DNA of 37,383 bases from a virus. Taxonomy: Duplodnaviria > Heunggongvirae > Uroviricota > Caudoviricetes. Shown here piece by piece: positions 642 to 22,086 of the stretch. The number at the start of each line of letters is the position of its first letter. Within the stretch, counting starts at the first letter, position 1. A program made the translations under genes and the position numbers. A model generated the notes under the pieces. The model was not told where the DNA came from, did not search any database, and saw only the letters and a program-made list of their open reading frames with translations. The stretch lies in IMG/VR virus record IMGVR_UViG_2737471869_000016; one strand, written 5' to 3'.

Positions 642-1027
642 GGCTGGTATCCCGTCACGCGCTGCCACTCCTGCGAGAAGAGGGTGGAAAGGCGGTTAAA
701 TTCAGCGGTGTATTCACTCAGCGAGGCACACCCGCCAGCAGTGCGATGCGCCAGCATTGCCGCAAATACGGAGGCCGGGGAGTCGTAATACGCCAGTAGT
801 GATTCGCCGTGTGGTGTCAGGCAGTGCAACGCCAGCCCGTGTGGTGTGAAGTCCACGCGGTAGCAGTCGTCTACTGTGAAATAAAGGGTGTCTGCATTCT
901 CTGGTTTTGTGGTGCGTGCTCTGTTGTCACGACCACGGATGTAGAGATCAAATAATCCCTGAAGAACGGGAGCCAGACGGGTGTCCTGTGTGCGCACCCA
1001 TCTTGTGAAGTCATGAGCGTCAATCAT
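638..1027 (-). CDS. Hypothetical phage-like protein (129 aa)
   Basis: ORF-track frame; stop overlaps start of the downstream edge-truncated gene; no motif recognised. Confidence 0.5.
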   Translation of the reverse strand: MIDAHDFTRWVRTQDTRLAPVLQGLFDLYIRGRDNRARTTKPENADTLYFTVDDCYRVDFTPHGLALHCLTPHGESLLAYYDSPASVFAAMLAHRTAGGCASLSEYTAEFNRLSTLFSQEWQRVTGYQP

Positions 1028-1099
1028 GCTGCAATTCTCTTTACTACAGATGTGCGAAGGCCTCCCGCCGCAAGGTGCAGGAAAGGCCCGGAACAGGAA

Positions 1100-1330
1100 T
1101 TAATGGAGTTTGTTTTGCTGCTGGATGAGCTGTTGAAGCTCGTGCAGATCATCCGCCAGATAGCTGAAAACAGAGGCGGAATAAATGTTTGATAGTGCGT
1201 GGCTGCGCTCATGCAGCATATTGATGTGCATGATTTGCGCGACGCATGATGCGCGGGAAAGTCTGCGGTTGATTTCAGTCTGGATGTGACGACGCGCAGC
1301 GTATGCGCGCTGTTGTTTGCGGTTTGCCAT
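1100..1330 (-). CDS. Hypothetical small basic protein (76 aa)
   Basis: ORF-track frame with Arg-rich N-terminus; same strand as neighbours; no motif recognised. Confidence 0.4.
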   Translation of the reverse strand: MANRKQQRAYAARRHIQTEINRRLSRASCVAQIMHINMLHERSHALSNIYSASVFSYLADDLHELQQLIQQQNKLH

Positions 1331-1652
1331 GGTGTGGCCTCTTTGCTCGGTGATAGAAATAGCTCACCATCCAGAGTTGAGAATCTCGGGGTGGCGAGAC
1401 GTACAGGGTTCTCAACACCGGAGAGCAAAGAATCCGGCCCGACCGAAGTCGGCCCCGTACGCCCCGCCATAATTCTGACGCGAAAAAGACGTGGCAATAC
1501 AGTACGCACAAAAAAACCGCTGGCGCGGTTATGCGCTTTGCTCTGTATCGGGTTGAGAATCCCGGCACCCGTTTTATGAGGTGCAGCGGAAATGTAACCT
1601 GACCGATTGCGACATGGCAAGCGGTTTTTTTGTGTGTGCATGTTCTGGTTTC

Positions 1653-1952
1653 TTACTGGTTCAGAAAAAAATCAAAAACCTTGTCAATGCGTTGCAGCAG
1701 CTCTTGCTGCATTGCTTCCGGCGTTTCCGGTTCGCCTGGTGCCCCCAGCGTTGCGCAGAAATCAGCGATTTCATGATGGAGCGTCAGGCGAATGGCAGGA
1801 GCCGTGGTTTTGGCGTGCTCCAGCTGATCCAGCAGTGCCAGCACTGCAGACGGCGAGAGCATTGCGCGAAATGCCAGTAATTTTTGAGGAGTTGCCATTC
1901 GTTGCAGGGCAAATGCCAGTTCGCGTAGCTTCTGGTGGTTGATGGTGCTCAT
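1653..1952 (-). CDS. Hypothetical protein (99 aa)
   Basis: ORF-track frame; start overlaps stop of the upstream 88-aa gene (operon packing). Confidence 0.45.
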   Translation of the reverse strand: MSTINHQKLRELAFALQRMATPQKLLAFRAMLSPSAVLALLDQLEHAKTTAPAIRLTLHHEIADFCATLGAPGEPETPEAMQQELLQRIDKVFDFFLNQ

Positions 1953-2215
1953 GTTCTGGCTTCCTTCAGTAGCTGGTTAAACATGTGAGTAAGTGGATTG
2001 CTACACCCGAACGGCATCGGGTTTACGTGGTAAGAAGCCTGGCCTCCAGTTTTGCGAGCGCGACCACCTGTGCTGCGGTTTGTTCTGATGACTAAGCCGC
2101 CGCGCCAAAGTCGGCGTAACTCAGCATTAATAGCTGTGGTTGGGGTGTTCAGTGCTGCGGCGATTTCTCCGCCGCTACAACCCGGATGTGTAGTGATGTA
2201 GTCCAGAATGGTCAT
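1949..2215 (-). CDS. Small putative DNA-binding protein (88 aa), winged-helix-like
   Basis: Sequence GGEIAAALNTPTTAINAELRRLWRGGLV resembles a helix-turn-helix recognition segment; overlapping start/stop with neighbours. Confidence 0.45.
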   Translation of the reverse strand: MTILDYITTHPGCSGGEIAAALNTPTTAINAELRRLWRGGLVIRTNRSTGGRARKTGGQASYHVNPMPFGCSNPLTHMFNQLLKEART

Positions 2216-2415
2216 TTGCGTGGCTCCTGTACCTGTCGGATAAGATTCACCCGCGCCACGTTGGTGGCGCAGAAGTAAGTGCCGTCAGTGAGGTAGATGT
2301 GGTGTGCATCCTTTTCCGAACGATGTTTGTCGATAGTGGTAATCAGGCGTTCGTCGACCTCGTATTCGCGCCCTCTGGAGGTAAAGCGAATGACGGGAAA
2401 ATGCTTAATTGCCAT
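2212..2415 (-). CDS. Hypothetical protein (67 aa)
   Basis: ORF-track frame, tightly packed in minus-strand operon. Confidence 0.4.
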   Translation of the reverse strand: MAIKHFPVIRFTSRGREYEVDERLITTIDKHRSEKDAHHIYLTDGTYFCATNVARVNLIRQVQEPRK

Positions 2416-2438
2416 TGCGCCCCCTTTGTCCAGTAACC

Positions 2439-2855
2439 CTATGCGTTAAATACGGCACGTTGCGCGTCATCAATGAATACAGCTTGAGATCGTTCTATCA
2501 GGCGGAGATTTGTCAGAAGCTCTGACTCTTTTGTGTGGTAAGGCGTTATCAGGTATTTGCCGTGCAGTTCGGCAATAATGGTGTATTGCGTCATTATTGC
2601 CGAACCAAGAATGTAAATGCGGCGTCCAATGCTGGACGGATTCATGGCTGCAACTGTTGACTGTGTTTTAAGAGTGTCGATTTCTTTGCTCTGTTCCTCA
2701 ATAATTTTGGCTGCTTCAGAGGTGGCTATTGCGATGGTCAGTGCGTAAAGCGCTGCCATATGTTGATTATCTTTCTGGGCTGCCCTGGGCAGCTTGTCTT
2801 GCTCTGCTGACACCATTTTTAATGTGTTGATAATATTTTTTTCTTTTGCGTTCAT
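2439..2855 (-). CDS. Hypothetical protein (138 aa)
   Basis: ORF-track frame; protein-like composition; no motif recognised. Confidence 0.5.
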   Translation of the reverse strand: MNAKEKNIINTLKMVSAEQDKLPRAAQKDNQHMAALYALTIAIATSEAAKIIEEQSKEIDTLKTQSTVAAMNPSSIGRRIYILGSAIMTQYTIIAELHGKYLITPYHTKESELLTNLRLIERSQAVFIDDAQRAVFNA

Positions 2856-3057
2856 TTTATATCTCCGTTATTTGCGTGTGCGAATACCTCCGCGAATGCG
2901 GATAGTTTTCAGGTTTTCGGGTTTAATCTGGTGTTTTGTTTAAGCTGTTATTTGTCAGTGAAAAAGCGTTCAATCTTTTTTACTGAATGAATAATTCGCA
3001 TAATCCCAATGGCGCAGGCCACCGAAATAATCAGAACAAGCCATGAGATAAATATAC

Positions 3058-3300
3058 TCATGCGATATTCCCCAGCTTATACGGTTCAATGTGTTCCCCG
3101 CATTCTGCGGCACAGATCAGCTCGGAAAGTTCGTTCAGTGCATCCAGATCATCAGCGTAAAAAGCAACGTCATACAAACTCCGGATTGCCCTGGTCAATG
3201 AGTCACGGGCTGCATGTTCAGCATGAGCGCCTGATGCACTTAAGCGAAAATAAAATCGTTCAAGTGCTTTGTTAATGAGAGTTTTATATTCTTTGCCCAT
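3058..3300 (-). CDS. Hypothetical protein (80 aa)
   Basis: ORF-track frame; no motif recognised. Confidence 0.4.
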   Translation of the reverse strand: MGKEYKTLINKALERFYFRLSASGAHAEHAARDSLTRAIRSLYDVAFYADDLDALNELSELICAAECGEHIEPYKLGNIA

Positions 3301-3311
3301 CGCAACGCCCT

Positions 3312-3590
3312 TTAATCTGCTTTCTGAATTTCAGCTTCTGAATCCATACAAATAATTTCGATATAGGGTTCATCGCCATTAACCTGACGTGCCTTTTCAG
3401 CTTCGCTAATAATTTCTCGTACGGTCTGGTACGGAAGCTCCACAGTCAGGCGCGTACCGTTCAGATAAACGTAAGTAGCTGCGTTTTTTTCGGATGGAAC
3501 AACTCCGTCAATGGCTGATGCGCGTAATAACAGTTCACCGCGAAAATCAATAAAACGGATAAATACACCTTGTGCATGCTCTTTGGTCAT
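3312..3590 (-). CDS. Hypothetical protein (~92 aa; the ORF-track frame extends to 3650 but an internal ATG at 3590 with AGGTG 5 nt upstream avoids overlap with the upstream gene)
   Basis: ORF-track frame 3312..3650; internal Met (MTKEHAQGV...) preceded by a Shine-Dalgarno-like AGGTG. Confidence 0.45.
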   Translation of the reverse strand: MTKEHAQGVFIRFIDFRGELLLRASAIDGVVPSEKNAATYVYLNGTRLTVELPYQTVREIISEAEKARQVNGDEPYIEIICMDSEAEIQKAD

Positions 3591-3600
3591 AAAGCACCTG

Positions 3601-3951
3601 TTATAAATCAGCCTGTTTAATAAAACTTTGCCCGCGAAGCAGACGATCAACCGTGCGAAGTGCTTCGTATAATGTGAAATCCTGCCCGAAGTGATTGTCG
3701 CCGCAGTTCAATGCAAAAATGCGGTTTCCGGTAAACGGATTGCGTGGGCATTTGTGGACCACGATTCCAGCTTTCTCAATCAGCCAGGCATGCTCGCCGA
3801 TTTGTTTTACAGCGTGGCCATCCGGTGTTGCGTGCGTCTCGTTCAGGTTATAGCGACTGTTACTACGTGATGCACTGGTAGCGACGTGGTGTACATGGCG
3901 TTCTACGCCATTACGAAATTTGGAGTATGGATTATTAGCGTTTTTTTTCAT
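3601..3951 (-). CDS. Hypothetical protein (116 aa)
   Basis: ORF-track frame; no motif recognised. Confidence 0.45.
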   Translation of the reverse strand: MKKNANNPYSKFRNGVERHVHHVATSASRSNSRYNLNETHATPDGHAVKQIGEHAWLIEKAGIVVHKCPRNPFTGNRIFALNCGDNHFGQDFTLYEALRTVDRLLRGQSFIKQADL

Positions 3952-3972
3952 GATGGTGCTCTGTTCATTGTT

Positions 3973-4176
3973 TTAGCTGTTAGCCAAAGCGTCTTTTAAC
4001 ATCGCCACAAGGTTTACTTCAGGCTTTTCCATTTTGGCGCGTTTGGGGCGGATAATAATTCGACCGTCAGCCAACATCTTTTTGCATGTATTAAGAGGGA
4101 TACCTGTTATCTCTGCATATTTCTGCAGGGATACATAGGGGGCATTCACATTGATATTGATGGTTATACCTGACAT
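3973..4176 (-). CDS. Small HTH DNA-binding protein, excisionase/AlpA-like (67 aa)
   Basis: Segment YVSLQKYAEITGIPLNTCKKMLADGRIIIRP matches the Xis/AlpA-type HTH pattern (hydrophobic-TGI/LS-x-T-x-x-x-hydrophobic); position in a phage-like control region. Confidence 0.5.
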   Translation of the reverse strand: MSGITININVNAPYVSLQKYAEITGIPLNTCKKMLADGRIIIRPKRAKMEKPEVNLVAMLKDALANS

Positions 4177-4192
4177 CCCACTAGCCTCCTGA

Positions 4193-4399
4193 TCAGGAAG
4201 ATTTGTTTTGTTCTTTCTGGGTTAGCTCTAGGCCGCGAAGGAAGATCATGCGCGCCATGTTAGAGGATGAGCGTTGTTCTTTAGCTGCCATTTCATCAAT
4301 GACGGCTCGCTCCTCGAGGGACAGCCGAAGTGCCAGTCTTGGACCTGTGGCGGTGTTACGCGGAATGCGTGATCTGGTATCGTGAAGAACTTGTTTCAT
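4193..4399 (-). CDS. Ribbon-helix-helix (CopG/Arc-like) DNA-binding protein (68 aa)
   Basis: RLALRLSLEERAVIDEMAAK: beta-strand followed by helix pattern typical of RHH proteins; divergent from the XRE regulator gene. Confidence 0.45.
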   Translation of the reverse strand: MKQVLHDTRSRIPRNTATGPRLALRLSLEERAVIDEMAAKEQRSSSNMARMIFLRGLELTQKEQNKSS

Positions 4400-4474
4400 A
4401 GTGGTATATTGTGATCATCTAATAGCTCGTGAAATCATTTTGGTATCAAAAAAGATACCTGTCAAGGTTTTTGT

Positions 4475-4879
4475 ATGAAAAATGATATTGGTCAGCGGTT
4501 GCGTGAGGAAAGGGAAAGATTGGGACTTAGTCAAGTTGCCATGAGCGACATTGGTGGAGTCAAAAAGCTAACTCAGCTTAGATATGAGAAAGGAGATAGC
4601 TTTCCTGATGCTGCGTATTTGGCAGCGCTGTCTCGTTTTGGCCTTGATGTTCAGTATGTTGTGTTGGGAATTCACTCACCTGAAACTTATAACGATGATG
4701 AGCAGGAGTTGATTACTCGCTTTCGAGCAGCTTCGTTAGATGTGAAAAATGCGGTGATTGGGGCTTTAAAAGGCGCGATCAGTGAAAAGGAAACTCAGCC
4801 ATCAGGACGTGAGTTAAATATTTCTGGTGGTAATAACCGTATCGCTGGTCGTGACTATAACGAAACTAAGGGTAGGTGA
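4475..4879 (+). CDS. XRE/Cro-CI family HTH transcriptional regulator (134 aa)
   Basis: N-terminus IGQRLREERERLGLSQVAMSDIGGVKKLTQLRYEKG is a classic XRE-type HTH; divergently oriented to the minus-strand early-like operon. Confidence 0.8.
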   Translation: MKNDIGQRLREERERLGLSQVAMSDIGGVKKLTQLRYEKGDSFPDAAYLAALSRFGLDVQYVVLGIHSPETYNDDEQELITRFRAASLDVKNAVIGALKGAISEKETQPSGRELNISGGNNRIAGRDYNETKGR

Positions 4880-4894
4880 TAGTAGGGAGGTGAC

Positions 4895-5545
4895 ATGGCC
4901 GTCAACTCAAACGGTTCAAACAATCGCGTTGCAGGGCGTGATTTTCACGAAAAGAATATTCAGATAGAGCGATATGATGGTTCTCATACCGTCAATATCG
5001 CAATCCCTTCGAATAATGATGATGACGATCGCCCTTTGCTTAAGGCTCAGCGTAAGGAGCTAAATAGCTTGGTTGCTGCTATTGCAGAAGCTAGCAATAC
5101 TGAAGCGTTTATTATTTGGCAAAAAGTACATGCGGAGATTGGTGTAGCTGGTATTGATGATATGACAGTAAATCAATATAAAACAGCGGAGAGTTTTCTG
5201 CATGCAATGCTTGAGCGATGTAAAGATCATGATGCCTGTAAGGCTCTTGTAAGTTTATTACTACGTAACAGTGAAGACTGTGGACTTCGACAAAAACTTC
5301 TGCGGTATTGCCATATCAATTTCGGTACAGGACGTTTAAACGATCTTACTCGTTCTCAGTTACAGTCTGCATTGTCGTGGTTAGAGCAACAATCGGCATC
5401 AAGCCACACAGAGAGTTCGACCTTACCAGAAGTCCGACTACGTGCTTCAGAATTAATCCGACTTTATCCAAAAGAAATAATATTCTTTATCTGCGTAGGG
5501 GTTTTGGTAGGCGGTGTCATTTCTAGGGCGTTTTTTAATTTGTAA
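4895..5545 (+). CDS. Hypothetical protein with C-terminal hydrophobic segment (216 aa)
   Basis: ORF-track frame; C-terminus IIFFICVGVLVGGVISRAFF is a probable transmembrane helix. N-terminus repeats the motif NNRVAGRDFHE also found at the C-terminus of the preceding regulator. Confidence 0.55.
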   Translation: MAVNSNGSNNRVAGRDFHEKNIQIERYDGSHTVNIAIPSNNDDDDRPLLKAQRKELNSLVAAIAEASNTEAFIIWQKVHAEIGVAGIDDMTVNQYKTAESFLHAMLERCKDHDACKALVSLLLRNSEDCGLRQKLLRYCHINFGTGRLNDLTRSQLQSALSWLEQQSASSHTESSTLPEVRLRASELIRLYPKEIIFFICVGVLVGGVISRAFFNL

Positions 5546-5574
5546 TCTTACTTGAGCTAAATTGAGGTAATGAT

Positions 5575-5922
5575 ATGAAAGTAAAAAAGGTTCAACTATT
5601 AGTTACTTTTTTATCTATGTTTTCTTTTTCCGCCGTCGCAATGCCTTTTAAAACTATTGAACGTGAGAGTTTCAAGGGGGTATGGCCATTTAATACTGAT
5701 GAGGTTCAATTACAGTGTCTTGATGGTAATCCTTATGTGATGAATTTTGACGATAATAAGTTATATGCACTTACAGGTTTGGCTCGAATAAAAGGTAAAA
5801 CATTTGGTGCGTTACCGTTAGATAACAATAATCCATTTTGGCTAGATAATGATGCCGCCCCAGGGTTAAAAAAGAGTCTGGGGGATGTCACTAAGGCTGC
5901 ATTTGATTTATGTGATAAGTAA
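5575..5922 (+). CDS. Small secreted/periplasmic protein (115 aa)
   Basis: N-terminus MKVKKVQLLVTFLSMFSFSAVAMP looks like a signal peptide; SD-like sequence upstream. Confidence 0.6.
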   Translation: MKVKKVQLLVTFLSMFSFSAVAMPFKTIERESFKGVWPFNTDEVQLQCLDGNPYVMNFDDNKLYALTGLARIKGKTFGALPLDNNNPFWLDNDAAPGLKKSLGDVTKAAFDLCDK

Positions 5923-5927
5923 CTAAA

Positions 5928-6929
5928 ATGTCGGTTCGTAAGATTCCATCAGGTAAATGGCTTTGCGAATGTTATCCCTACGGGGCATCGGGAAAACGCA
6001 TTCGTAAACAGTTTGCGACAAAAAGTGAGGCGCTCTCTTATGAGCGCCGTTTAATGAATAGTAGAGTTGGAGACGAGTTTCAAGATGGTTCTGGTCCTCG
6101 TCTTTCTGAGTTGATTGCTCGTTGGTTTGAGATGTACGGTAAAACCTTGTCCTCTGGTGCAGAGCGCAAAGTCAAACTTGAGGCGATTTGTTCCAGGCTG
6201 GGAGATCCATTTGCTTCTCAGTTTGACAAAAATATGTTTGCTACTTATCGGGAAAGAAGGCTATCAGGAGAATGGAATCCCAAGGGGAAGAAAAAACTTA
6301 GTGAAGCAACCGTTAATCGCGAGCAGTCATATCTACATGCTGTTTTTGCCGAACTGAAGCGCCTTGGGGAGTGGTCTGGTGAAAACCCCCTGACTGGTAT
6401 TCGCAAGTTTCGTGAGGAAGAAAAGGAACTGGCGTTTCTGTATGTAGATGAGATTGAACGCCTTCTGATTGCGTGTGATGAGTCACGGAATAAAGATTTG
6501 GGGGTTGTTGTCCGTATTGGGCTTGCGACGGGTGCTCGGTGGAGTGAAGCAGAAGGATTAAAGCAATCTCAAGTACTGCCCGGTCGAATCACATTTGTTA
6601 AAACTAAAGGAAAGAAGAACCGCACTGTACCGATTTCACCTCAATTGCAGGCTATGCTTCCTAAAAAACGAGGAGCGCTATTTTCACCATGTTATGAGGC
6701 TTTTGACGCTGCAATTAAGAGAGCGAAGATCGAGCTTCCTGATGGGCAATTAACTCATGTGCTACGTCACACGTTTGCCAGTCATTTTATGATGCGGGGC
6801 GGAAATATTCTTGTGTTGCAAAAAATACTGGGGCATAGCGATATAAAAATGACTATGCGTTATGCGCATTTTGCTCCAGGTCATTTAGAGGCTGCTGTTG
6901 AATTGAACCCTTTTGACAATAGAGGGTAA
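5928..6929 (+). CDS. int: Tyrosine site-specific integrase, phage P2-like (333 aa)
   Basis: Catalytic-region motifs TGARWSEA, ITFVKTKGKKNRTVPIS, HVLRHTFASHFMMRGGNILVLQKILGH and MTMRYAHFAP (R..HxxR..Y). Recalled similarity to the phage P2 Int C-terminal region. Gene ends ~100 bp before the tRNA-Leu-derived att-like fragment. Confidence 0.9.
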   Translation: MSVRKIPSGKWLCECYPYGASGKRIRKQFATKSEALSYERRLMNSRVGDEFQDGSGPRLSELIARWFEMYGKTLSSGAERKVKLEAICSRLGDPFASQFDKNMFATYRERRLSGEWNPKGKKKLSEATVNREQSYLHAVFAELKRLGEWSGENPLTGIRKFREEEKELAFLYVDEIERLLIACDESRNKDLGVVVRIGLATGARWSEAEGLKQSQVLPGRITFVKTKGKKNRTVPISPQLQAMLPKKRGALFSPCYEAFDAAIKRAKIELPDGQLTHVLRHTFASHFMMRGGNILVLQKILGHSDIKMTMRYAHFAPGHLEAAVELNPFDNRG

Positions 6930-7035
6930 AAAGTGGCGATAAAAAGTGACAATAGATTCAAATGGCGTTGTATAGAGCCATTTTCAAAGTTAATAAAATC
7001 ATAAGGTTATGATTTATAAATGGTGGTTGATAGTT

Positions 7036-7090
7036 TTTAAAATCCCTCGGCGTTCGCGCTGTGCGGGTTCAAGTCCCGCTCCGGGTACCA
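7036..7090 (+). other. att-like fragment: 3' ~55 nt of tRNA-Leu(UAA) (anticodon loop, variable arm, T-arm, acceptor 3' strand, ACCA); not an intact tRNA gene
   Basis: TTTAAAATCCCTCGGCGTTCGCGCTGTGCGGGTTCAAGTCCCGCTCCGGGTACCA: T-stem GCGGG/CCCGC around the GTTCAAGTC T-loop, ending in ACCA. No complementary 5' acceptor strand (GCCCGGA) or D-arm upstream, so this is a partial copy as left by integration into a tRNA gene. Confidence 0.8.
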
Positions 7091-11779: not shown

Positions 11780-12598
11780 CTACTCAAATGATATTAATTT
11801 AGGTGCGACAGTGTTTTTATGATGTGTTGAATTTGCAAGATTAATAATATCATGAAATGATTTCATGTCGTCGTCAGTGATTTCTAGGGCTGGATCAGCT
11901 AAATCGGCACAGGTAACATTTAACCAGTGTGTTAATGAATCAATCCTGTTTGAAGTAATATATTCAGTGTGACCAACATTCCACTTCCAGTTGATTATCC
12001 GAGCTGGTCTGAATCTCACCTCCCGAACCCCAATTGGTGTTACTGACTCAACGAGAGGGTATATCGTGTTAAGTACTTTATCATGTTCACTGTAGATATT
12101 TAAATGCCCCATTTTTGAACCGTAAGCCATTTTCATTATGTTCTCTGTATAACTTGTTATTGGGGTGGCTCCGGCCATAGAGATTGTTAAGAGAATATTA
12201 TCATTTTTAATATAGGGTAATGTATTGTTTATTAATCGAGTCCCTAAAGAATGACCCATTATGATCACATTACGCTTTTCTTTAACGTATATCTCGTTTA
12301 TTACGCGTGCTAATTTTTCTCTGTTATTAACTGCTGCTTTCGTTGCATTATACCAGGCCTGACGCGCTTTAAATGGGATGGAGATTGATGACAATAAAGG
12401 AGATGTTCTCAGGGGGAAGAGAGTATATAGCCCCCACTCGTTCGCTATGTCAGAACTTAATATGGATAGTAGATTTGCCGATTCCCATTTATAGTATCTG
12501 ACATCAAGGCCACACCCTGCTTTAATTCGGTTAAACCATGATATATCATTTTCGGTCAGAAACCCTGATACAACAAGAAGAACCGGGCATTTTTTCAT
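11780..12598 (-). CDS. Alpha/beta-hydrolase fold protein (272 aa), putative serine esterase/lipase
   Basis: Nucleophile-elbow motif GHSLG (VIIMGHSLGTRL); candidate acid/base residues downstream (EHDKV); AT-rich gene immediately downstream of the WYL regulator on the same strand. Confidence 0.65.
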   Translation of the reverse strand: MKKCPVLLVVSGFLTENDISWFNRIKAGCGLDVRYYKWESANLLSILSSDIANEWGLYTLFPLRTSPLLSSISIPFKARQAWYNATKAAVNNREKLARVINEIYVKEKRNVIIMGHSLGTRLINNTLPYIKNDNILLTISMAGATPITSYTENIMKMAYGSKMGHLNIYSEHDKVLNTIYPLVESVTPIGVREVRFRPARIINWKWNVGHTEYITSNRIDSLTHWLNVTCADLADPALEITDDDMKSFHDIINLANSTHHKNTVAPKLISFE

Positions 12599-12659
12599 GG
12601 TAACTCCATTTTTTAGCTTACAAAAATAGCACTCAATGAAAATTATATTATCCGTGTCA

Positions 12660-13562
12660 TTACGGGGCGTTACTTGGCTGGGTGTAACGTTTCAGTGCGG
12701 ATTGTATATCTTCAGCAAGTTGTTGACGGATTGAGGCCGGTTGTATTACTTCGACATCCGGTATCCAGTATTTCATTAAAGGCATTATCTGATCTGTGTG
12801 TGTTACACGTGATATCACCAGTAAATCGCCAGACCGGGAAGTATGAATTATTTCCTGTCCTGGCAATAGATGACGGTGGGTAAACCACGGAGCAACATGT
12901 GCGGAAACTGAAATAAGAACTTCGATAAGGTCTTCGCTATACCAGATACCATCTGTCTTTTCTATTTTTTCATTAATTTCGGGGATTATCCTGAAAGAGA
13001 TATTACTCATGCAAACGTCTTTGACAGATGAGATAACAAAGCTTTTTAATGTACTGTCATGGGCGGCAGCGAGATACCACAATCCGTTGTCATTAACCAG
13101 TCTGTATGGCTCAACAGCCCGAAACTCTTTATCTTTGTAATTAAAATTTACTTTCTTCTGTGACAGGATGGCATCGGATAATACATTCAGAATTGACATG
13201 AATGATCCGCAGTTTTCGTATGGACGTTGTTTTATCAGAAACGGGTTGTTTTTCGTGTTACCTAACAAAATACTCAGTAGTCTGTCATCCCAGCGAGGGA
13301 ACAGCCCTTCAATACCCAGGATGCGCGTGAAATGACGTAAATCAGCATTGCTGCGTTGACCGAGAACACCGTCAGACAGGCGATAGCGACCATTTTGTCG
13401 AATCAGATTAAGATAGGACAGGCGCTGAGTAAGATCACGACGGATAGTTTTTTCGCAAACGTTAAATTCCTCAGATAACTCCCGGAAGGCTAGTGACTCA
13501 CCATTGTTCAGGCGAGTTAATATCAATCCGAGTCGATATCCAAGTTTATCGTGCTTACCCAT
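12660..13562 (-). CDS. WYL-domain transcriptional regulator (HTH + WYL), BrxR/CapW-like (300 aa)
   Basis: N-terminal HTH ([20 protein letters not shown]) and central WYL signature ([20 protein letters not shown]). Subfamily assignment is by analogy. Confidence 0.8.
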
Positions 13563-13611
13563 TCGTTTATCCGGTTAATGCCAGCGAAGAGGATATTTTC
13601 AGCAAAGTAAC

Positions 13612-13722
13612 GGACAGGATGAGTCCACTTTTACTGTGACGGAGAAAAAAATTAACTCATTAATTATCAATATATTAAAACATTGCTGGAATCATCGAAT
13701 AACATATGGACTCATCCTGTCC
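13612..13722. promoter_or_regulatory. Perfect 16-bp inverted repeat pair (GGACAGGATGAGTCCA / TGGACTCATCCTGTCC) spaced by 79 bp, 50-160 bp upstream of the WYL regulator start
   Basis: Arms at 13612..13627 and 13707..13722 are exact reverse complements, around an AT-rich spacer in the divergent promoter region between the WYL gene and the 108-aa gene. Confidence 0.55.
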
Positions 13723-13941
13723 ATGTGTATTTTTACGTTCAGGGTGATAATTATCATCCTGACCTGTACATGACCTGTTTTTGCTGCATATTTGACCATG
13801 CACTTTTGCCATCAAGTCGGAGAGGCAGGGGGGAACGTAAGATACGAAGGTTAGAGAGGTTATCAGCAATTACAATGATGATTAATATTTTCATAATATC
13901 GGAGAACATCATATTAGTTGAAATAACATAAAGGTGGTTCT

Positions 13942-14268
13942 ATGTATTTACATATCAGAAAGTATCAACTCGTAAATGCGAGATGGCGTGATGTCATTGA
14001 TCTGACAGATTATGAAGAAACAATAAGGCAGATTGTCGGTACATTATTTGGAAATGATTTTATTGAGGTCAGCGTTGAAACAAATTTTTTTACTCTGACA
14101 GTAAACAGTACAAGCAGTAAAATACCACACGGCATACTGGTGAATATGGGGAAAAGGCTGGCGGCTAATCTCCAGAGTATCACCTGTCATGCCATGCGGA
14201 TCTATCATGTTAATGGCCATCCTGACGCGCGGCAGTTATTTCACTGTTTTGATGTCGATTGCCTGTGA
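13942..14268 (+). CDS. Hypothetical protein (108 aa)
   Basis: ORF-track frame; divergent from WYL regulator, convergent with the polymerase gene. Confidence 0.5.
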   Translation: MYLHIRKYQLVNARWRDVIDLTDYEETIRQIVGTLFGNDFIEVSVETNFFTLTVNSTSSKIPHGILVNMGKRLAANLQSITCHAMRIYHVNGHPDARQLFHCFDVDCL

Positions 14269-14283
14269 TTAAGCCCCCAACTT

Positions 14284-14312
14284 CTGTTAAAGGAGTTGGG
14301 GGAGATTTAACG
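14284..14312. terminator. Hairpin between convergent genes (possible bidirectional terminator)
   Basis: CCCCCAACT-(11 nt)-AGTTGGGGG perfect 9-bp stem just downstream of both the 108-aa gene and the polymerase gene; no strong T-run. Confidence 0.45.
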
Positions 14313-14316
14313 GTTA

Positions 14317-16980
14317 TCAGGCTGGAAGACAGAATGTCGGATATTTACGGGCTATGATATCCATCAGTGACTTCATTCGCGGTGTTACAGAACTAAATTT
14401 CATTTGGGGTATTTTTGCTCTTACCGCATTTTTTACATCAGTCACCGTTACTGAATAGCCTTCTGACGTCAGCCATTCAGCAACCTCTTTACAGGAATAA
14501 CTTTTTTTATCTTTCAGCATCAGCCCCCATTGGCACTGAGTCAGCGCCCGGAGAAATAGTCTGACTAAAATATCATCACTACGTTTGCTTCCGACTTTTA
14601 GTTTCATATCAGAAAACACCGTCCGGCAATAGAGAAAATCACACCAGTCATCCCAGTCAGCCAGGGTCTTCAGTGTATGCGTTTGCCGCCAGTCGTCGAA
14701 AAGAGAGCGTTGCTGCAGAGCCTCTTCCATATTATCCCATGGGCGGGAAAACATCAGTAAATGCCCTTCATTCATGGCGGGCTGTACGGGCTGGCGTTTG
14801 AAATCGAATTCCAGATTAAGACGGATATCCTGTTCCCGGGATACCAGATCGCTTTCCGACAGCCACATCTCACGCGTTGATATCAACGTACTTCGGGATA
14901 ACGTCTGACCGGGTAAACGATTAAGGTAAAGATCTACCATATAGTCGTTATAGTCACTGCGTGGAATATCGGCAGGAGGTTTGACGCCAGCCCTGGCATG
15001 AACAACAGGTTTTCCCTGAATAGCTCTATAGGTTAACTGCCCCCGGGTTTTCATGGCGATAAGCTGGCTGACTTCATGCTTACATGTCAACATTGATGAA
15101 CCCGGATCAACAATATCGCACAGCGACTGGAAGCGGGAAGACAGTGGACCGCTCATGTTTATCTTGTTAAGTGGGCAATTTGTCAAAAAGCCATCGGTTG
15201 TGACGCTGACAACCGATGAATCAGAAGGCAAAGCATTCATGAGTTCCCCGGCAACGGCGCGGATAAATCCCGTTACATGCGCAGCAAAGAATGGCTGAGT
15301 AACCGATGATGGCGGGAGGGATCTGTTTAATCCACGGGCAGTATCAAAGGCGGTTTTGGCGCGAAGGCCCTGAGCAAGTTTGCCATAAAGCGAGTTGCCA
15401 ATTTCTTTCCAGAATTTCTCCTCCAGAGAACCTTTAATATGGCGATTACGGTTCTCACGGACCTGTTGAACAAAGGGAAGAAACACCGATGTTGATTCGC
15501 TGTTATGTGGGGAGATGTCACAGATCCAGGGGACGATGATCCCATTATGGATCGTCATCTCTGCCCCGAGCGACAGAGCAAGTTCGATTTCAGGTGCCGT
15601 TGCCCATGATTCGCCACTTAATGGAAAGAATAACCCATATTGATCGGTCCGAACCGGCAGGCTGGGATAGGGAACTGATTCCGGGAACCGAAATGTGACA
15701 AGCGCAAATCCCATTACATGCCCACAGTAATCGTCCGGATTTTTACTGAGGCGGATGTTCCCGTAATCGGGTGTGAGGATATCTAATAGCCCGGTGGTAT
15801 ACGCTCCAGCCAGATCGTAGTCATACCAGTGATCAGACGGTGTAACCCCCATCATAAAACACTCATTGCGTCCGCCGTGGTAACAGTTGATCGGGAACGT
15901 TTCAAACAACTCTCTTGAAGGAACACTGGCGGGGTTTTTAATCGTCCGGAATGCCTGTTTTTCCGTGAGCCAGAGTTCACGGGTTTTAATGTGTGTCCCA
16001 AGGCAGACTTCAGGAGACATATTGTTTTCTTTAAGTGTTTTGGTGAACCGTGAAACTGCCATCGCCCCGATGGTGGCGGGGACACGATCAATCATCAGCT
16101 CCCGGGCGCAAAAATTGCGAACCTGTAAAGCATAACGAACCGCAATCTCGGCATCCCGCAGAGCATAGGCTTCAAACCCTGCTCTGTCGCCCAGAAGATA
16201 TTCACGCATATTGGTTATGGAATAAGGTGCAGGAATGGTGAGTTTGGGAAGACCCAGTAATTCACCACATTCAGCCAGACCCATACCCCCGGGAGTGATA
16301 AGCAGTGTATCGATGAAAGCTACGTTACTGCAACGCGGAGGGGAAGTTCGTTTGTCAAACATTATCTGTTCAGTCTTTACGCGACGTTCCTGCTGTTCAT
16401 CAAAATCGATACCGTAACGATTTTTGAAGCTGCTGACAGTACCGCGTATTCCTTTCAGAAGAATTTTGTAGTCTGACCAGAAATTGGCAAAGGAGGCGAT
16501 ATCCGCACGAATGAAATGCGCATATATATTAATAATACCGGGCCATTTTGTAATCACACCCGTTTCAAGAAGCGGTGTAATCGTTTGACAGAGAAATTCC
16601 TTAAAAGACAGCCGGGATTTTTTCTGTGAGTCAGGTGGATAGATAATGTTCGATATACCTGTATTATCGGGTAAGACAACATAACTCTGATATGACAGAA
16701 TATCATTCTGTCGTGTTTCAGGGTTGAAAACATATTCGGTATCAAAACCGATATGGAGCGTCAGGTCGTTTGAAATCACAGACACGTTTTTTGATGCAGG
16801 TGGCATCACAGGATAATCATCAAGCGTTTTAGGTCTTTTACGATTGAGCACTGGCTCTGAAGTCACGGACTGATACCCCGAGGCGGCAGCGAGGATATCC
16901 TGCAAATTATGGCTCATAGTTAACTCCGAAAAAATGCCGGGAGCTGTGTCCCGGCATAAAGAATCAAGATTTAATAACAT
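14317..16980 (-). CDS. Family-B DNA polymerase of the primer-independent type (piPolB), pipolin hallmark (887 aa in ORF track; likely start at internal Met 16917, RBS GGAG)
   Basis: PolB motifs read in the translation: Exo I IGFDTEYV (DxE), Exo III YALRDAEI (Yx3D), motif B KEIGNSLYGKLAQG (Kx3NSxYG), motif C-like VTTDGF, and AMKTRGQ, i.e. the KTRG motif that I recall replacing KxY in piPolBs. Neighbours are integrase and AlpA/Xis-like genes. Confidence 0.85.
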   Translation of the reverse strand: MLLNLDSLCRDTAPGIFSELTMSHNLQDILAAASGYQSVTSEPVLNRKRPKTLDDYPVMPPASKNVSVISNDLTLHIGFDTEYVFNPETRQNDILSYQSYVVLPDNTGISNIIYPPDSQKKSRLSFKEFLCQTITPLLETGVITKWPGIINIYAHFIRADIASFANFWSDYKILLKGIRGTVSSFKNRYGIDFDEQQERRVKTEQIMFDKRTSPPRCSNVAFIDTLLITPGGMGLAECGELLGLPKLTIPAPYSITNMREYLLGDRAGFEAYALRDAEIAVRYALQVRNFCARELMIDRVPATIGAMAVSRFTKTLKENNMSPEVCLGTHIKTRELWLTEKQAFRTIKNPASVPSRELFETFPINCYHGGRNECFMMGVTPSDHWYDYDLAGAYTTGLLDILTPDYGNIRLSKNPDDYCGHVMGFALVTFRFPESVPYPSLPVRTDQYGLFFPLSGESWATAPEIELALSLGAEMTIHNGIIVPWICDISPHNSESTSVFLPFVQQVRENRNRHIKGSLEEKFWKEIGNSLYGKLAQGLRAKTAFDTARGLNRSLPPSSVTQPFFAAHVTGFIRAVAGELMNALPSDSSVVSVTTDGFLTNCPLNKINMSGPLSSRFQSLCDIVDPGSSMLTCKHEVSQLIAMKTRGQLTYRAIQGKPVVHARAGVKPPADIPRSDYNDYMVDLYLNRLPGQTLSRSTLISTREMWLSESDLVSREQDIRLNLEFDFKRQPVQPAMNEGHLLMFSRPWDNMEEALQQRSLFDDWRQTHTLKTLADWDDWCDFLYCRTVFSDMKLKVGSKRSDDILVRLFLRALTQCQWGLMLKDKKSYSCKEVAEWLTSEGYSVTVTDVKNAVRAKIPQMKFSSVTPRMKSLMDIIARKYPTFCLPA

Positions 16981-17602
16981 TTACTACAGATTTGAAAATA
17001 TCGGTTTTGCGTGATTCATCATCTGCATGGATAAATGAAACGAGGTTCCTGCCTGCTTTAATCAGGATGCCACGTTGCGTCTTTTCCACAGATGGGGTGA
17101 CGCGTGCAGATAACAGACAATTTTCATGTAACTGAAGAAACTTTTTTGAGGCGTAGCCGCCATGCAGTCGGGCTTTAATTTCATTATACATATCATCAAG
17201 AGAACCGGGTTCTCCTGATTCACTCAATACCGGATAGCCCTTCTTATCAAAAAGGCTGAGGATAGATTTACCATCATGTTCGAACAAGGTAACACCGTAA
17301 ATGTATTTCATTCGAAAGGTGAGGGCGTCGGTGGTGTAGATCTCCTCCTGACAACTGAAATTTTTGAGACGCCTGGCTAATTCATTAAAAACAGCACGAG
17401 CAGTAGCCGTGTCCTGCAGGGTGTAGGTATAAAGTACGAAGCCATCTGTGCCGATGAGCTTTACTAAGTTGTCCATAATCGTGATAGCGAGAACTAATGC
17501 AAAGGACAGATATTTTTCATCGTTGTCTACAGCTGTGCTTGCTGATTCGGGAATAATGTTCAGTGCATTATTAGCGTTATTTTCCGTGTTCTTAGTAACC
17601 AT
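16964..17602 (-). CDS. Hypothetical protein (212 aa) between the AlpA/Xis-like gene and piPolB
   Basis: ORF-track frame; overlaps the AlpA-like gene by 11 nt; no motif recognised. Confidence 0.6.
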   Translation of the reverse strand: MVTKNTENNANNALNIIPESASTAVDNDEKYLSFALVLAITIMDNLVKLIGTDGFVLYTYTLQDTATARAVFNELARRLKNFSCQEEIYTTDALTFRMKYIYGVTLFEHDGKSILSLFDKKGYPVLSESGEPGSLDDMYNEIKARLHGGYASKKFLQLHENCLLSARVTPSVEKTQRGILIKAGRNLVSFIHADDESRKTDIFKSVVNVIKS

Positions 17603-17792
17603 TTATATCACCTTTAAGTTTGTTTTGACGATGTGCATTTTCCCACTCAACAATATCGTCAAGAGAGAATCGTATAGCCCGCCCAATTCTGATGAAGGGC
17701 GGGAGTTTTCCGGGGTTGCGCGATATATCTGACGCAACCGTGGATGCAGAAAGATTAAATCTTTCTGCGAACTGCTTAATGGTTAAATACAT
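17592..17792 (-). CDS. AlpA-family HTH protein / putative excisionase (66 aa)
   Basis: YLTIKQFAERFNLSASTV ... IRIGRAIRFSLDDIVEWE matches the AlpA/Xis pattern; immediately downstream of the integrase. Confidence 0.75.
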   Translation of the reverse strand: MYLTIKQFAERFNLSASTVASDISRNPGKLPPFIRIGRAIRFSLDDIVEWENAHRQNKLKGDINGY

Positions 17793-17934
17793 AAACCTCC
17801 GGTTTCAGAGAATAAGAAGCCACGCGGATTTAATATCAATCCACATTCTGTGATGACTTAATGCAGGGCCCTGCAGAAGCATGCAATGACAATACCGTCC
17901 TTAAACGAGTGTTGCATCAATCACGAATCACAGA

Positions 17935-19071
17935 TCATAGGTTCATTTTTGTGTCATAACTTTCTATGACCTGAGAAACCACTGCGTGTGATGTCGCTGC
18001 ATTGTGAAAAGCGTAGCGACGGGTCGCCGTGAGTGAATGGTGATTTAGCAGATGGGAAGCGATTGCAATATCCCCGGTCGCCTGTAGTACCCGGGTGGCA
18101 AAGGTACGGCGCAGGTCATGCATCCGCAGGTTATCAATGTTGGCATCCCGACAAATACGGGCAAAGGTTGCACGCGGATATGCCAGAGGGCGGGCATTGT
18201 CGGTTAGTTGTGGAAAAATGTAAGTTTTGCTGAGCATCAGGTCTTGCTGGCACTGGACAACTGCAATGGCTGGAGGTGCAAGTGGGCAGGTGAAAGGGTG
18301 TCCGGACTTTGTATCAGGCAGTATGAGTTGATGCATATCCGGGTGCCAGTACTCCCATTTCAGGGTACATACCTCACCAATACGCATCCCCGTATAAAGA
18401 GCAAGCAATATAGAATCAGCTGCCGGTGTTTGCAGCGCTGTTGCCGCGTCAATAAAGCGCGGGATTTCTGTCGCTGATAGTGTGCGATAGCGAATGTTAT
18501 TTTCTTTCAGATAGCGGACATGTGACATCGGGGAATGTGTGATCCATCCAGCACGTACTGCCAGAGAGCATATTTTGGACAATATTGCGAGGATACGGTT
18601 TACTGTTGACGGACGTAATTTTTCCCGTAAGCCAGCAGCATATTGTTCTAGTTCTCCTGCCGTGATGTCGCGAAGTTGCCGCTTGCCCCAGAACGGGCGA
18701 ACGTAGAGGTTGAGTTTTGACAACTCTGACTGAGGACTCTTTTTATACAACTGCAAATCCGGTAGCCACAGGTCATTGATGGCCTGTTCCACAGTGAATC
18801 GACGGGACTGAACCGCAAGACGATTTTTATCAGCAAGCAGTTTCATCACATGCTGACGGGCATCCTCAACGCAGAGCTGAGGGAACTGACCCAGGGTTTC
18901 ATATATACGCTGATTGTTTATAGTGGTACGAAAGGCCAGCGTGATCCGATTGGGATACACCAGAGCACGCAGGTTTTGGCAGTGAATATCACGGTATTCC
19001 TGACAACCCGTGAGGGGATGTGGAAGTTGGTGAATTGATTTGTTGCTGAAACGCAGATCCAGAATAGGCAT
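17935..19071 (-). CDS. int: Tyrosine site-specific integrase (378 aa)
   Basis: Catalytic motifs LALYTGMRIGEV, HDLRRTFATRVL, LLNHHSLTATRRY (R..HxxR..Y). Confidence 0.9.
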   Translation of the reverse strand: MPILDLRFSNKSIHQLPHPLTGCQEYRDIHCQNLRALVYPNRITLAFRTTINNQRIYETLGQFPQLCVEDARQHVMKLLADKNRLAVQSRRFTVEQAINDLWLPDLQLYKKSPQSELSKLNLYVRPFWGKRQLRDITAGELEQYAAGLREKLRPSTVNRILAILSKICSLAVRAGWITHSPMSHVRYLKENNIRYRTLSATEIPRFIDAATALQTPAADSILLALYTGMRIGEVCTLKWEYWHPDMHQLILPDTKSGHPFTCPLAPPAIAVVQCQQDLMLSKTYIFPQLTDNARPLAYPRATFARICRDANIDNLRMHDLRRTFATRVLQATGDIAIASHLLNHHSLTATRRYAFHNAATSHAVVSQVIESYDTKMNL

Positions 19072-19213
19072 CGTATTTCTCCTGTAAATGACACTGGAAA
19101 AATACGATGTGAGGTTATAGTCTGCCAGTTACAGCTTTCACAGTTCATCAGGTGAAAAATGCTGATTCGGATATAATGGCAACACAATTCCATGTCGCCA
19201 TTATATTAAGAAA

Positions 19214-20344
19214 CTACAGTTTCATGATCTTGTTCGCTATTTTTTCGAAGTAAACCTCATTCTTAAGAAGAGTGATATTGTTAGTTTGAACACCCAGACC
19301 ACTGGACGTTGACTGGAAATTCATTGAACCACTTATCACTGTGGACTTTCCTGATAAAAAGGAAATCAACTCCTTGGAAGATGGTGCCCACTCAGGGTTT
19401 AAGAGTAATGCAATATAGATATATGTCTTACGAAGCAATTGTTCGATATCTTTTTTATGCCCTGTAGTGTTTTGCTTACCTTTAATGCAAATAGATTTGA
19501 TTATGAACTCATCAGGGCTGGTTAAAGGCGTTTTAAACTTATTCAGTGATCCATCGTTATGAATGACTTCATAAGGCAGCATAGATAAAATGATCAATGC
19601 AATCATTTTAGGATGATAAAGGTAGTTATCACGAATGATTTTTCCTGCCTTCATTGTATTGAGCGTTGTTTGAATAAATACAAAAAGATATTCAGAGCAA
19701 AAGTAACAAAACACAAGCCAGGATAGGTCAATGGCTGGAATGTTAATATCCTTAGGTAGTTTGTTTAGCCAGTATTCAGACTTCAAAAAGGTCCTGATTT
19801 CAACAGTATATTCATGCATTTTTGCGCTGAAATCAAGCATTGCTACTTGACCTGATTGTTCCGTAACTGTGTGGTCTATAAATGTTAGTGTATTGCACAT
19901 TTTATCCAGCGTGTTTTGAAAACAAGAAAGGAGTTCGGCATTATTATTACCATTAACCGCAGATGAAAGTTCAGTTTTAATAAATGCATCCAGTAGCATA
20001 CAGATTTCTTTCGGAATTACATTTTTACGGGATTGCTGTGAATAGAAATGTACTGCCAGTAAATTAAAGGCAGTGCACTCCTTTTTTAACCATTGTTCGA
20101 GCACTGGGACGTGCTGAAAAAAATTGATATGCTTAGCAGTAGATGCTGATGGAGACAGTACATGAAGAATATCTACAGCAGGCTTCATTTGCAATATTTG
20201 ATCGGATTCGGTAGTCGTCATTAGTTCCAGTAATTGCTGTTCAGAAAATAGTTTAGACAGGTGATCAATGTCTTTTTGGTATTGATTAAGTTTTGTTAAA
20301 TTCCCCGGTATACGGGTTACATTGTTTTTCATTTTCTCGAACAT
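19214..20344 (-). CDS. Hypothetical protein (376 aa), AT-rich
   Basis: Long ORF in a strongly AT-rich block; no motif recognised; location beside an R-M operon. Confidence 0.6.
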   Translation of the reverse strand: MFEKMKNNVTRIPGNLTKLNQYQKDIDHLSKLFSEQQLLELMTTTESDQILQMKPAVDILHVLSPSASTAKHINFFQHVPVLEQWLKKECTAFNLLAVHFYSQQSRKNVIPKEICMLLDAFIKTELSSAVNGNNNAELLSCFQNTLDKMCNTLTFIDHTVTEQSGQVAMLDFSAKMHEYTVEIRTFLKSEYWLNKLPKDINIPAIDLSWLVFCYFCSEYLFVFIQTTLNTMKAGKIIRDNYLYHPKMIALIILSMLPYEVIHNDGSLNKFKTPLTSPDEFIIKSICIKGKQNTTGHKKDIEQLLRKTYIYIALLLNPEWAPSSKELISFLSGKSTVISGSMNFQSTSSGLGVQTNNITLLKNEVYFEKIANKIMKL

Positions 20345-20850
20345 AATTTTATCCTCGTTTGAATTATTACACTGATTTAAAAAGTAGCATGTCGTGTTAG
20401 CGAGGTAATCCTAAAACGTGAATGGCAGCAGGGGCAAGCTTGAATCTGCGTAAGGATATGGCTTAAATTTAATGGTGTAATCAGTGAGTTAGAGGCTTAT
20501 AGCCATTTAAATACAATAAGTTATGATGATATGTGGCGGGTGTAAATCGGTTAGTTTTTATGGTTAAAATATGAGCGTTGTGAGATTTGAGATATGATGG
20601 TTTTTAAATTACATACAAGTTACCCCTGATGATCAGTATTAATACCAGAATGATACATGCGAGCAGCACCCAATCCTGTACTATTGATGATGGCTATACA
20701 AGGCTGAAACTTTGAGTTGTATGTTGCCAGGAGGATTAATGTCCACAAGGCCCAGATAGAATGATTTCTCAGATATTAAAGTTGAAACTTATTAACTATG
20801 TGAGAGGCTGATATTTATTCAGTCTCTCATTTGTTTTTATCGTTTTAAAG

Positions 20851-22086
20851 TTAAAAGGAAATAAATAATGCCTTCCGCCGATGAATCAATATGCTGATTT
20901 CCCTCAAATCAGCCTCAATACTACCAACATCACCAAAGACTTCACCTCTAATCTCACTTCGATTTTTCATGAAATTGGTGCTTAATAAGCTTTCTTTTTT
21001 TAATGCCATTAATTTTGGTTTTATATCGTTATAGAAGTGCTTATGGCTTACCCTGATGTTATGAATCGAGTAGTAAACTGTTTTATACATCAAAAATATA
21101 AGTAACTGGCCGAGAAGATATTCTTTTTCAATGTATTTATATTGAGAGGATTTTTCGCGTTTCGCCAGGTAGAAAACATGAGGTGCGATGATGGTGGGGA
21201 TAAAATCCAGTGCTGGAGAGGTTTTGGTTTTTTCTGTTTCTCTTCCGGATTGAAGATGTTGAAGTACAGAGTATGCAATGCTTAATATTATGGCATTGCT
21301 TATATTATTAATTTCAGTTGGGTAAATATGCAGGTTGCTTATCAATTCTGAAAGGCAAAGTAAAACACCAGTGATGTTGGGTTTTCTGCCAGAGATTGTG
21401 GTGCTGTTGAAAATGTGACGATTCTTACGACTTATATTGACAAGTTTATGAGTGCAGAACTCTATATGTTTGACGATTTTATCTTGACTATTTTTAATGT
21501 ATTTTGAAATGTTAGTGATCCGGCCATTCAACGTTAGTTCATCAAGCAATATATCATTTTTAATATTGCGAATTTCATCGCAATGTTTAGATTCAAAAAC
21601 TATCTCATGTAATACATAACTCGAAGTATTGCGTGACGATGCTGATATGTAATCTAAAATGGAATGCTCGACTTTGATTTTTTGTTTGTATTTTTTAATG
21701 CACTGTTTGATTGTTTTTTGTAGAGTATTTGAGATGTGTTTTTTATATTCTTTTAGAAAATCTTGCTCTAAAAAGAGTGAGGAGAAGATCAACTGCTGGC
21801 GAGATAATTTAATCTCAGGCTTGATCAATTTAATCCGAAAAACTCTTCCCTCCAACTCATAGCTGAACATGGAAGATAAGTCATAGTGGGGTGATAAATG
21901 TTCGAGTAACGACATTCGTGTATTCATTAGCCGTTTGAATTTATGGTCAGCATACATAAGTGTTTTTTTTATTTGCTCATCATAAAGTGGGCCGATAGCG
22001 CAGTTGGCAATACTCATTCTATCCGGAGACCTCCAGTCAGCAGGGGAATCACATTGACGGTCATCATTACTATCAAAGGGCATCAA
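20851..22086 (-). CDS. Hypothetical protein (411 aa), AT-rich
   Basis: Long ORF in an AT-rich block; Lys/Ile/Asn-rich; no motif recognised. Confidence 0.6.
   Translation of the reverse strand: MMPFDSNDDRQCDSPADWRSPDRMSIANCAIGPLYDEQIKKTLMYADHKFKRLMNTRMSLLEHLSPHYDLSSMFSYELEGRVFRIKLIKPEIKLSRQQLIFSSLFLEQDFLKEYKKHISNTLQKTIKQCIKKYKQKIKVEHSILDYISASSRNTSSYVLHEIVFESKHCDEIRNIKNDILLDELTLNGRITNISKYIKNSQDKIVKHIEFCTHKLVNISRKNRHIFNSTTISGRKPNITGVLLCLSELISNLHIYPTEINNISNAIILSIAYSVLQHLQSGRETEKTKTSPALDFIPTIIAPHVFYLAKREKSSQYKYIEKEYLLGQLLIFLMYKTVYYSIHNIRVSHKHFYNDIKPKLMALKKESLLSTNFMKNRSEIRGEVFGDVGSIEADLREISILIHRRKALFISF

Follow-up and report, generated by a model that had tools for sequence, protein, structure and literature searches.

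The pipolin of Escherichia coli, an integrative element that encodes the primer-independent family B DNA polymerase piPolB, carries a G+C-rich hairpin and a U-run directly before the start of the polymerase gene, and we consider it likely, judging from sequence and from comparison across pipolins, that this hairpin is a Rho-independent terminator acting as an intra-operon attenuator. It lies in IMG/VR virus record IMGVR_UViG_2737471869_000016, a stretch of 37,383 nucleotides (nt) that we call the window, that is such an E. coli pipolin, and whose numbering is used throughout. piPolB, the hallmark gene of pipolins, specifies an uncommon enzyme able to begin DNA chains with no primer, and published pipolin work deals with gene content and biochemistry (PMC5695915, PMC7385651, PMC11551731). 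That a terminator recurs immediately ahead of piPolB appears to be unreported. Taken by itself, the element is an ordinary, well-formed intrinsic terminator, and the advance lies in pipolin biology rather than in a new mechanism: a terminator directly before the polymerase start in most pipolin lineages would be a concrete, testable control point. The features on which the argument turns are these:

16934..16957, minus strand: candidate terminator hairpin, a perfect 9-bp stem (AUGCCGGGA/UCCCGGCAU) with a 6-nt loop, CACAGC
16929..16934, minus strand: U-run (T6), its first T being the last stem base
16924..16927, minus strand: Shine-Dalgarno (SD) sequence GGAG of piPolB, 2 nt past the U-run and 6 nt ahead of ATG 16917
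16964..17602, minus strand: orf212, a gene of 212 amino acids (aa) and unknown function (open reading frame (ORF) list; PGAP coding sequence WP_021579294.1)
14317..16917, minus strand: piPolB, primer-independent family B DNA polymerase of 866 aa (PGAP coding sequence WP_040090354.1; start ATG 16917)

The TGA stop of orf212 (16966-16964) is followed by 6 nt (UUCUUU) and then, at 16957, by the hairpin; from the hairpin to ATG 16917 there are 16 nt, GGAG taking part of them, and a single C separates the T-run from GGAG. The whole orf212-piPolB gap measures 46 nt, close to the ~45 nt given in the first-pass annotation, a model's earlier reading of the same DNA, which had also correctly picked out a 7-bp core (GCCGGGA/TCCCGGC) with a T-run on the minus strand; the stem extends to nine perfect pairs. 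Six of the nine are G-C, the stem-loop energy is -15.6 kcal/mol, and the hairpin has the makings of an intrinsic terminator: a stable G+C-rich stem-loop and a U-rich tract immediately 3' on the transcribed strand. The 91-nt fold around it has z = -3.5, with none of 200 shuffles folding equally well. Among terminator-like sites within 12000-22000 the hairpin ranks first, and its motif occurs exactly once in the window (0.04 occurrences expected by chance with two mismatches allowed; a second match has two mismatches). The chance of finding a terminator-like hairpin in a given 46-nt gap is about 1%, from a background of about 0.2 per kb per strand in related loci. The hairpin resembles canonical E. 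coli intrinsic terminators in its G+C-rich perfect 9-bp stem, short loop, immediate U6 and position just past a co-directional stop, and differs from them in that it does not stand at the end of a transcription unit and that the next SD begins 2 nt after the U-run, which leaves no space in which a promoter could sit. Because there is no upstream A-tract, it would act in one direction.

Why should a terminator stand inside a row of genes? orf212 and piPolB are co-directional and follow, on the same strand, an integrase gene (int) and an excisionase-like gene (xis), and the promoter scan found no promoter-like site on the minus strand across 16917-17602, a range that includes the interval between terminator and downstream start. 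Given this, the 16-nt gap from hairpin to ATG and an SD only 2 nt after the U-run, every piPolB transcript would therefore have to cross the terminator. In the mechanism that we propose, RNA polymerase arriving from the int-xis-orf212 side would transcribe the hairpin and U6, and a fraction of transcripts would end there; only read-through transcripts would carry GGAG and ATG 16917, and piPolB output would be well below that of the upstream genes and proportional to upstream transcription, as a fixed or modulated fraction. Both termination in vivo and its efficiency are what we infer from the analysis. The arrangement is like the intra-operon terminator before a primase gene, also conserved, also directly ahead of a replication enzyme, and with downstream expression likewise by way of read-through; the genes and the element are unrelated, the two share no sequence similarity, and the pipolin case is drawn from sequence.

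The hairpin has neither the competing helix nor the known RNA family that would mark a leader-peptide or riboswitch-type attenuator. No competing antiterminator helix is apparent, and the minimum free energy (MFE) and centroid structures both retain the terminator stem; reading the preceding ~240 nt gave no CCGG-containing complement to either hairpin arm; and an Rfam scan of 14000-20000 at E<=1 matched no family. We also rejected a leaderless arrangement and a promoter lying in the interval from hairpin to ATG: the best hexamers found by eye match at 2-3 of 6 positions, and the conserved GGAG intervenes.

The chief new finding comes from distant pipolins. A protein search with piPolB gave 1911 homologues; the word-index search yielded near-identical E. 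coli clusters only, and distant piPolBs were obtained by an exhaustive profile search of representatives. An alignment of 31 of these led to 80 loci in species-representative genomes, those of Gamma-, Beta- and Alphaproteobacteria with a few others besides. In these loci every ORF of at least 100 aa was put to the same, symmetric test, which called for a perfect-stem hairpin of -9 kcal/mol or lower, five or more T among the 11 nt about the end of the stem, and a hairpin end at most 60 nt ahead of an in-frame start retaining at least 70% of the ORF. Such a terminator-like hairpin precedes 42 of 70 piPolB genes (60%) as against 27 of 418 other genes (6.5%) in the same loci, an odds ratio of 21.7 (Fisher p 6e-24, for loci that are not phylogenetically independent). 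Any strong hairpin, with or without T-run, is found at 58 of 70 piPolB genes versus 106 of 418 others, and several loci scored as lacking a hairpin hold imperfect ones overlooked by the scanner, of which two have T-runs. Clustered by sequence, the 42 hairpins form 31 groups, those of different clades bearing no resemblance to one another, and on these counts conservation of the arrangement goes beyond shared sequence ancestry. In 40 of the 42 terminator-bearing loci the hairpin comes shortly after the end of a co-directional ORF of at least 50 aa, and the median distances are 22.5 nt from stop to hairpin and 18.5 nt from hairpin to start; relatives of int stand upstream of piPolB, on its strand, in many of the 50 loci that have a match, and homologues of xis do so in many loci. 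The first-pass annotation had suggested, as one of two possibilities, that the hairpin attenuates read-through from the int-xis operon, and that polymerase expression is gated; the anatomy fits the attenuator, the comparison of 42/70 with 27/418 strongly supports it, and polymerase expression is probably gated.

Five betaproteobacterial loci carry unusually long hairpins before piPolB: L032, L036, L038 and L039 (Rhodocyclaceae/Azonexaceae/Dechloromonas) and L030 (Polaromonas). Their stems of 13-22 bp, at -28 to -38 kcal/mol, are far above typical terminator strength.

Among E. coli genomes, a 61-nt stretch about the hairpin is at least 99% identical in 209 of 281, whereas the surrounding 341 nt reach this in only 33 of 283; the junction therefore exceeds the flanking coding sequence in conservation. 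Eleven aligned E. coli sequences fall into two allele types, the second of which is present in 64 genomes. Its hairpin has a 10-bp stem (ATGCCGGGGG/CTCCCGGCAT, -18.6 kcal/mol) and a different loop (GACGAA/GACAAA plus an extra G), and the extra length of the type-2 hairpin region is due to a G-run of 6-8 and, in one strain, to a T5 run. The stem changes include A-U to G.U at pair 9, which recurs independently in a metagenome variant of type-1 background, and U-A to U.G at pair 2. Stem, U-run and SD are retained across all E. coli alleles examined, with one stem change, described below, that is not wobble-compatible. The T-run is T6 in 10 of the 11 aligned sequences and T5 in the remaining one; GGAG and its spacing to the start codon are invariant among the 11; and the piPolB start codon is ATG except in strain PapRG-06-5 (L010), which has GTG. 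A metagenome scan for the SD-ATG context returned type-1, type-2 and the one wobble variant, and no new compensatory pairs.

The type-2 alleles (L002-L005, L010, L011 and L015) differ in having 6, 7 or 8 G in the 5' arm and loop, at the equivalent of 16949-16952, which alters loop size between strains and could be a slippage polymorphism or a homopolymer sequencing error. In three E. coli O145 loci (L002, L004 and L005) an IS3-family element lies next to or in the int-xis region just upstream of orf212, and in L004 the insertion eliminates the annotated orf212; in these strains the upstream transcription unit has been disrupted naturally. In L005, the allele with T5, piPolB is a frameshifted pseudogene, and in L011 (MLI104K2) it is also frameshifted.

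Several observations weigh against attenuation by a terminator. The enrichment statistic ignores relatedness, and the start codons of the distant loci are inferred, although the frame there stays open from the hairpin onward and leads into the conserved exonuclease domain. The pipolin papers PMC5695915, PMC7385651 and PMC11551731 mention no terminator or operon, and a promoter once, in the unrelated context of ampC. The promoter feeding the row was not located, the only candidate being a weak TTGATA-N17-CTTATT upstream of xis (17811-17839, minus strand, about 20 nt before the xis SD), which the promoter scan did not report. In strain SCPM-O-B-8794 (L014), a G-to-A change in the 3' arm leaves a C.A mismatch in the hairpin stem. 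The closest other clade, in Scandinavium, Buttiauxella, Intestinirhabdus and Enterobacter, with piPolB 71% identical, has at the same position a different hairpin of 8-9 bp (AGCGGUGUC-GAUAUU-GACACCGCU), which lies 13-17 nt past the stop of an orf212 homologue, whose pairing is backed by one compensatory change (U-A to C-G), and which is followed by CACCUGAAUAAG instead of a U-run. Hairpins are also commoner than hairpins with a U-run (58 versus 42 of 70 piPolB loci), and the conserved requirement may be the hairpin itself.

Since the hairpin is more widely conserved than the full terminator signature, a role in RNA stability or processing therefore has to be weighed. The hairpin might be mainly an RNA 3'-end or processing element in which termination is incidental, shielding the int-xis-orf212 message from 3' exonucleases or offering a cleavage site that separates off the piPolB message. 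The 71% clade, with its covarying hairpin and no U-run, would fit this, as would the surplus of strong hairpins over hairpins with a T-run. A stabiliser needs no T-run, however, and about three quarters of the hairpin-bearing loci have one, on the correct side and strand, as do the E. coli alleles, the single T5 included. We therefore judge such a role unlikely as the main one. Stabilisation and termination are not exclusive, because terminator hairpins also stabilise the RNA upstream of them.

The same hairpin without a U-run in the 71% clade, and the fact that the repeat directly adjoins the polymerase gene, would also be compatible with a signal at the DNA level, such as a palindrome or operator bound by protein, or else a hairpin serving the pipolin as a start of replication or a site of recombination. 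About 31 unrelated stem sequences across lineages speak against a conserved protein recognising the repeat, the element has the motif only once, and the T-run lies consistently 3' on the sense strand past a co-directional stop, a polarity that only transcription explains. We give this explanation very little credence.

A further question is where piPolB begins, for an upstream in-frame ATG would put the hairpin inside the gene:

16978..16980, minus strand: upstream in-frame ATG that opens an 887-aa ORF; not the real start (ACG in type-2 alleles; frame-breaking indels downstream)

The first-pass annotation was right that this ATG and the 887-aa ORF exist, and a few ENA and JGI gene calls (P0002, P0010 and P0061) adopt it, over-extending piPolB by 21 codons. 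Translation from 16980 through the hairpin, the other possibility that it had raised, is refuted by the alleles, and a hairpin that slows ribosomes from inside the coding sequence is virtually out of the question. In the 11-sequence alignment the equivalent codon of type-2 alleles is ACG, and their hairpin region is longer by 1, 2, 3 or 4 nt, so that the reading frame is not preserved; in one type-2 locus (L015) the frame is open and holds no start codon upstream of the ATG equivalent to 16917. No SD stands ahead of 16980, while GGAG precedes 16917, the start chosen by PGAP and most gene callers (of the 120 best protein clusters, only 3 have the 887-aa form). Relatives lack the 21 extra residues, and their N-termini line up with MSHNLQ; read from 16917, the N-terminus (MSHNLQDILAAASG...KTLDDYP) aligns to that of the 71%-identical clade (MFDMNALLADAAG...KTLDNFP). 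In the 866-aa numbering D59 and E61 fall within the DTE motif and D368 falls on an Asp; D368A is the inactive piPolB mutant of Redrejo-Rodriguez et al. 2017 (PMC5695915). The sequence evidence thus places the piPolB start at ATG 16917 and corrects the over-extension in some automated annotations.

How might the attenuator be modulated? The hairpin begins 6 nt past the orf212 stop, and the gate is therefore probably sensitive to orf212 translation: a ribosome that trails closely behind RNA polymerase and completes orf212 would mask some of the 5' arm and so promote read-through, an effect suggested by the geometry. Li et al. found that tR2 is almost fully repressed a few bp past a stop codon and reaches its maximum beyond ~27-30 nt (PMC4824070). 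Stop and hairpin are 6 nt apart in E. coli and ~20 nt apart in most other pipolins; the E. coli distance and the median of ~22 nt in other pipolins fall in the range where tR2 is repressed or variable (PMC4824070), as in ribosome-repressed terminators of the tR2 series and attenuation of the pyrBI type. Unlike those systems, the upstream ORF of the pipolin is a full 212-aa gene rather than a leader peptide, there is no antiterminator helix, and the ribosome effect is read from geometry.

A ribosome finishing orf212 could instead, or in addition to attenuation, open the structure, and piPolB would be translated only then. In the MFE structure and that of RNAalifold, UUGAUUC, containing the UGA stop, is paired to GGAGUUAA, and GUAGUAAAU to GUUAACUAU, so that the SD and AUG of piPolB would be bound, through weaker helices flanking the terminator stem, to the end of orf212, its final codons and stop; the three allele-type substitutions in these outer helices are all wobble-compatible. 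Those three are transitions on a single branch, about the level expected by chance, in helices rich in A-U and G-U; the 71% clade has neither a recognisable SD nor an equivalent outer pairing; and piPolB has its own well-spaced GGAG. We treat the predicted SD-sequestering helices as a weak lead and not as a finding, and translational coupling as a distinctly improbable account of the hairpin.

Mobile elements control genes with terminators and antiterminators in several known ways, among them lambda tR1/N, the Tn916 terminators and Pseudomonas aeruginosa AlpA. In these systems a terminator silences replication or transfer genes until activation, and an excisionase-like helix-turn-helix (HTH) gene also lies just upstream in the pipolin, in the manner of alpA-type regulators. 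The two genes concerned are:

17592..17792, minus strand: Xis, a 66-aa excisionase-like HTH protein (Pfam HTH_17, E=6e-9; PHROG 66, 'excisionase and transcriptional regulator')
17935..19071, minus strand: tyrosine recombinase, an IntP2-type integrase (Pfam Phage_integrase, E=2e-21; tyrosine-type recombinase in the CP013662 annotation)

We speculate, with considerable doubt, that the terminator is a conserved conditional licensing switch that couples polymerase synthesis to excision or int-xis activation. In the integrated, quiescent state the terminator would block polymerase synthesis, and read-through would occur only under strong transcription and translation of the int-xis-orf212 row, triggered either by ribosome occlusion of the 5' arm or by an unrecognised antiterminator such as Xis or orf212. 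The pipolin differs from the lambda, Tn916 and AlpA systems in that no antiterminator was identified in it and that the Rfam scan of 14000-20000 found no nut- or put-like RNA family. Xis as an AlpA-like antiterminator found no match to Phage_AlpA in Pfam (E<=10) or to AlpA in the PDB; it matches HTH_17 and excisionase families only, its best PDB match (E = 0.63) being irrelevant, and neither Xis nor orf212 is an identifiable antiterminator of the AlpA, Q or N type. If true, the switch could explain why pipolin excision and replication went unseen under laboratory conditions; excision was reported to be negligible during standard growth (PMC7385651). Removing or weakening the terminator should raise polymerase expression and may reveal episomal replication.

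The wider setting of the terminator is that of a chromosomal pipolin. Positions 7036-29700 of the window match, at 100% identity, the chromosome of E. coli strain 08-00022 (NZ_CP013662.1), where the region is annotated with piPolB, integrases, an HTH/excisionase-like gene, a DUF2787 gene and tRNA-Leu; Pfam detects WYL and integrase domains in the window proteins, and the gene set agrees with that described for pipolins (PMC11551731). The pipolin segment is present in 284 of 5426 complete E. coli genomes, chromosomal in every case, and the plasmid collection gave no match to the region. PGAP places on the minus strand a co-directional row of two hypothetical genes, the tyrosine recombinase, the 66-aa HTH/excisionase-like gene, orf212 and piPolB, the integrase being the first recognisable gene of the int-xis-orf212-piPolB row; xis and the start of orf212 overlap by 11 nt. 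orf212 itself has no Pfam, PHROG or PDB match and 14 close homologues, Enterobacteriaceae being the sole family in which homologues turned up; its counterpart in the 71% clade is 33% identical, and unrelated small ORFs of 65-200 aa occupy its position in other pipolins. An AlphaFold model of orf212 from a 7-sequence alignment had a predicted local distance difference test score (pLDDT) of 39 and was unusable.

The remaining observations concern the edges and spacers of the element. Positions 1-7035 lie outside the CP013662 pipolin region, and identity begins at 7036 within a 3' fragment of tRNA-Leu (...GGTTCAAGTCCCGCTCCGGGTACCA); ARAGORN found no intact tRNA in the window. The left 7 kb hold a phage-type integrase gene (5928-6929, plus strand) and a DUF2511 gene, as in enterotoxigenic E. 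coli H10407, and look as though a further element had inserted in tandem into the same attachment (att) site. The 142-nt spacer between int and xis contains a perfect 14-nt palindrome, TGCAGGGCCCTGCA, at 17862-17875 (minus strand), a possible operator. Finally, a 9-bp inverted repeat with an 11-nt loop (CCCCCAACT/AGTTGGGGG, 14274-14302), which has no clear T-run on either strand, sits between the convergent ends of piPolB (stop 14317) and a 108-aa gene (stop 14268).

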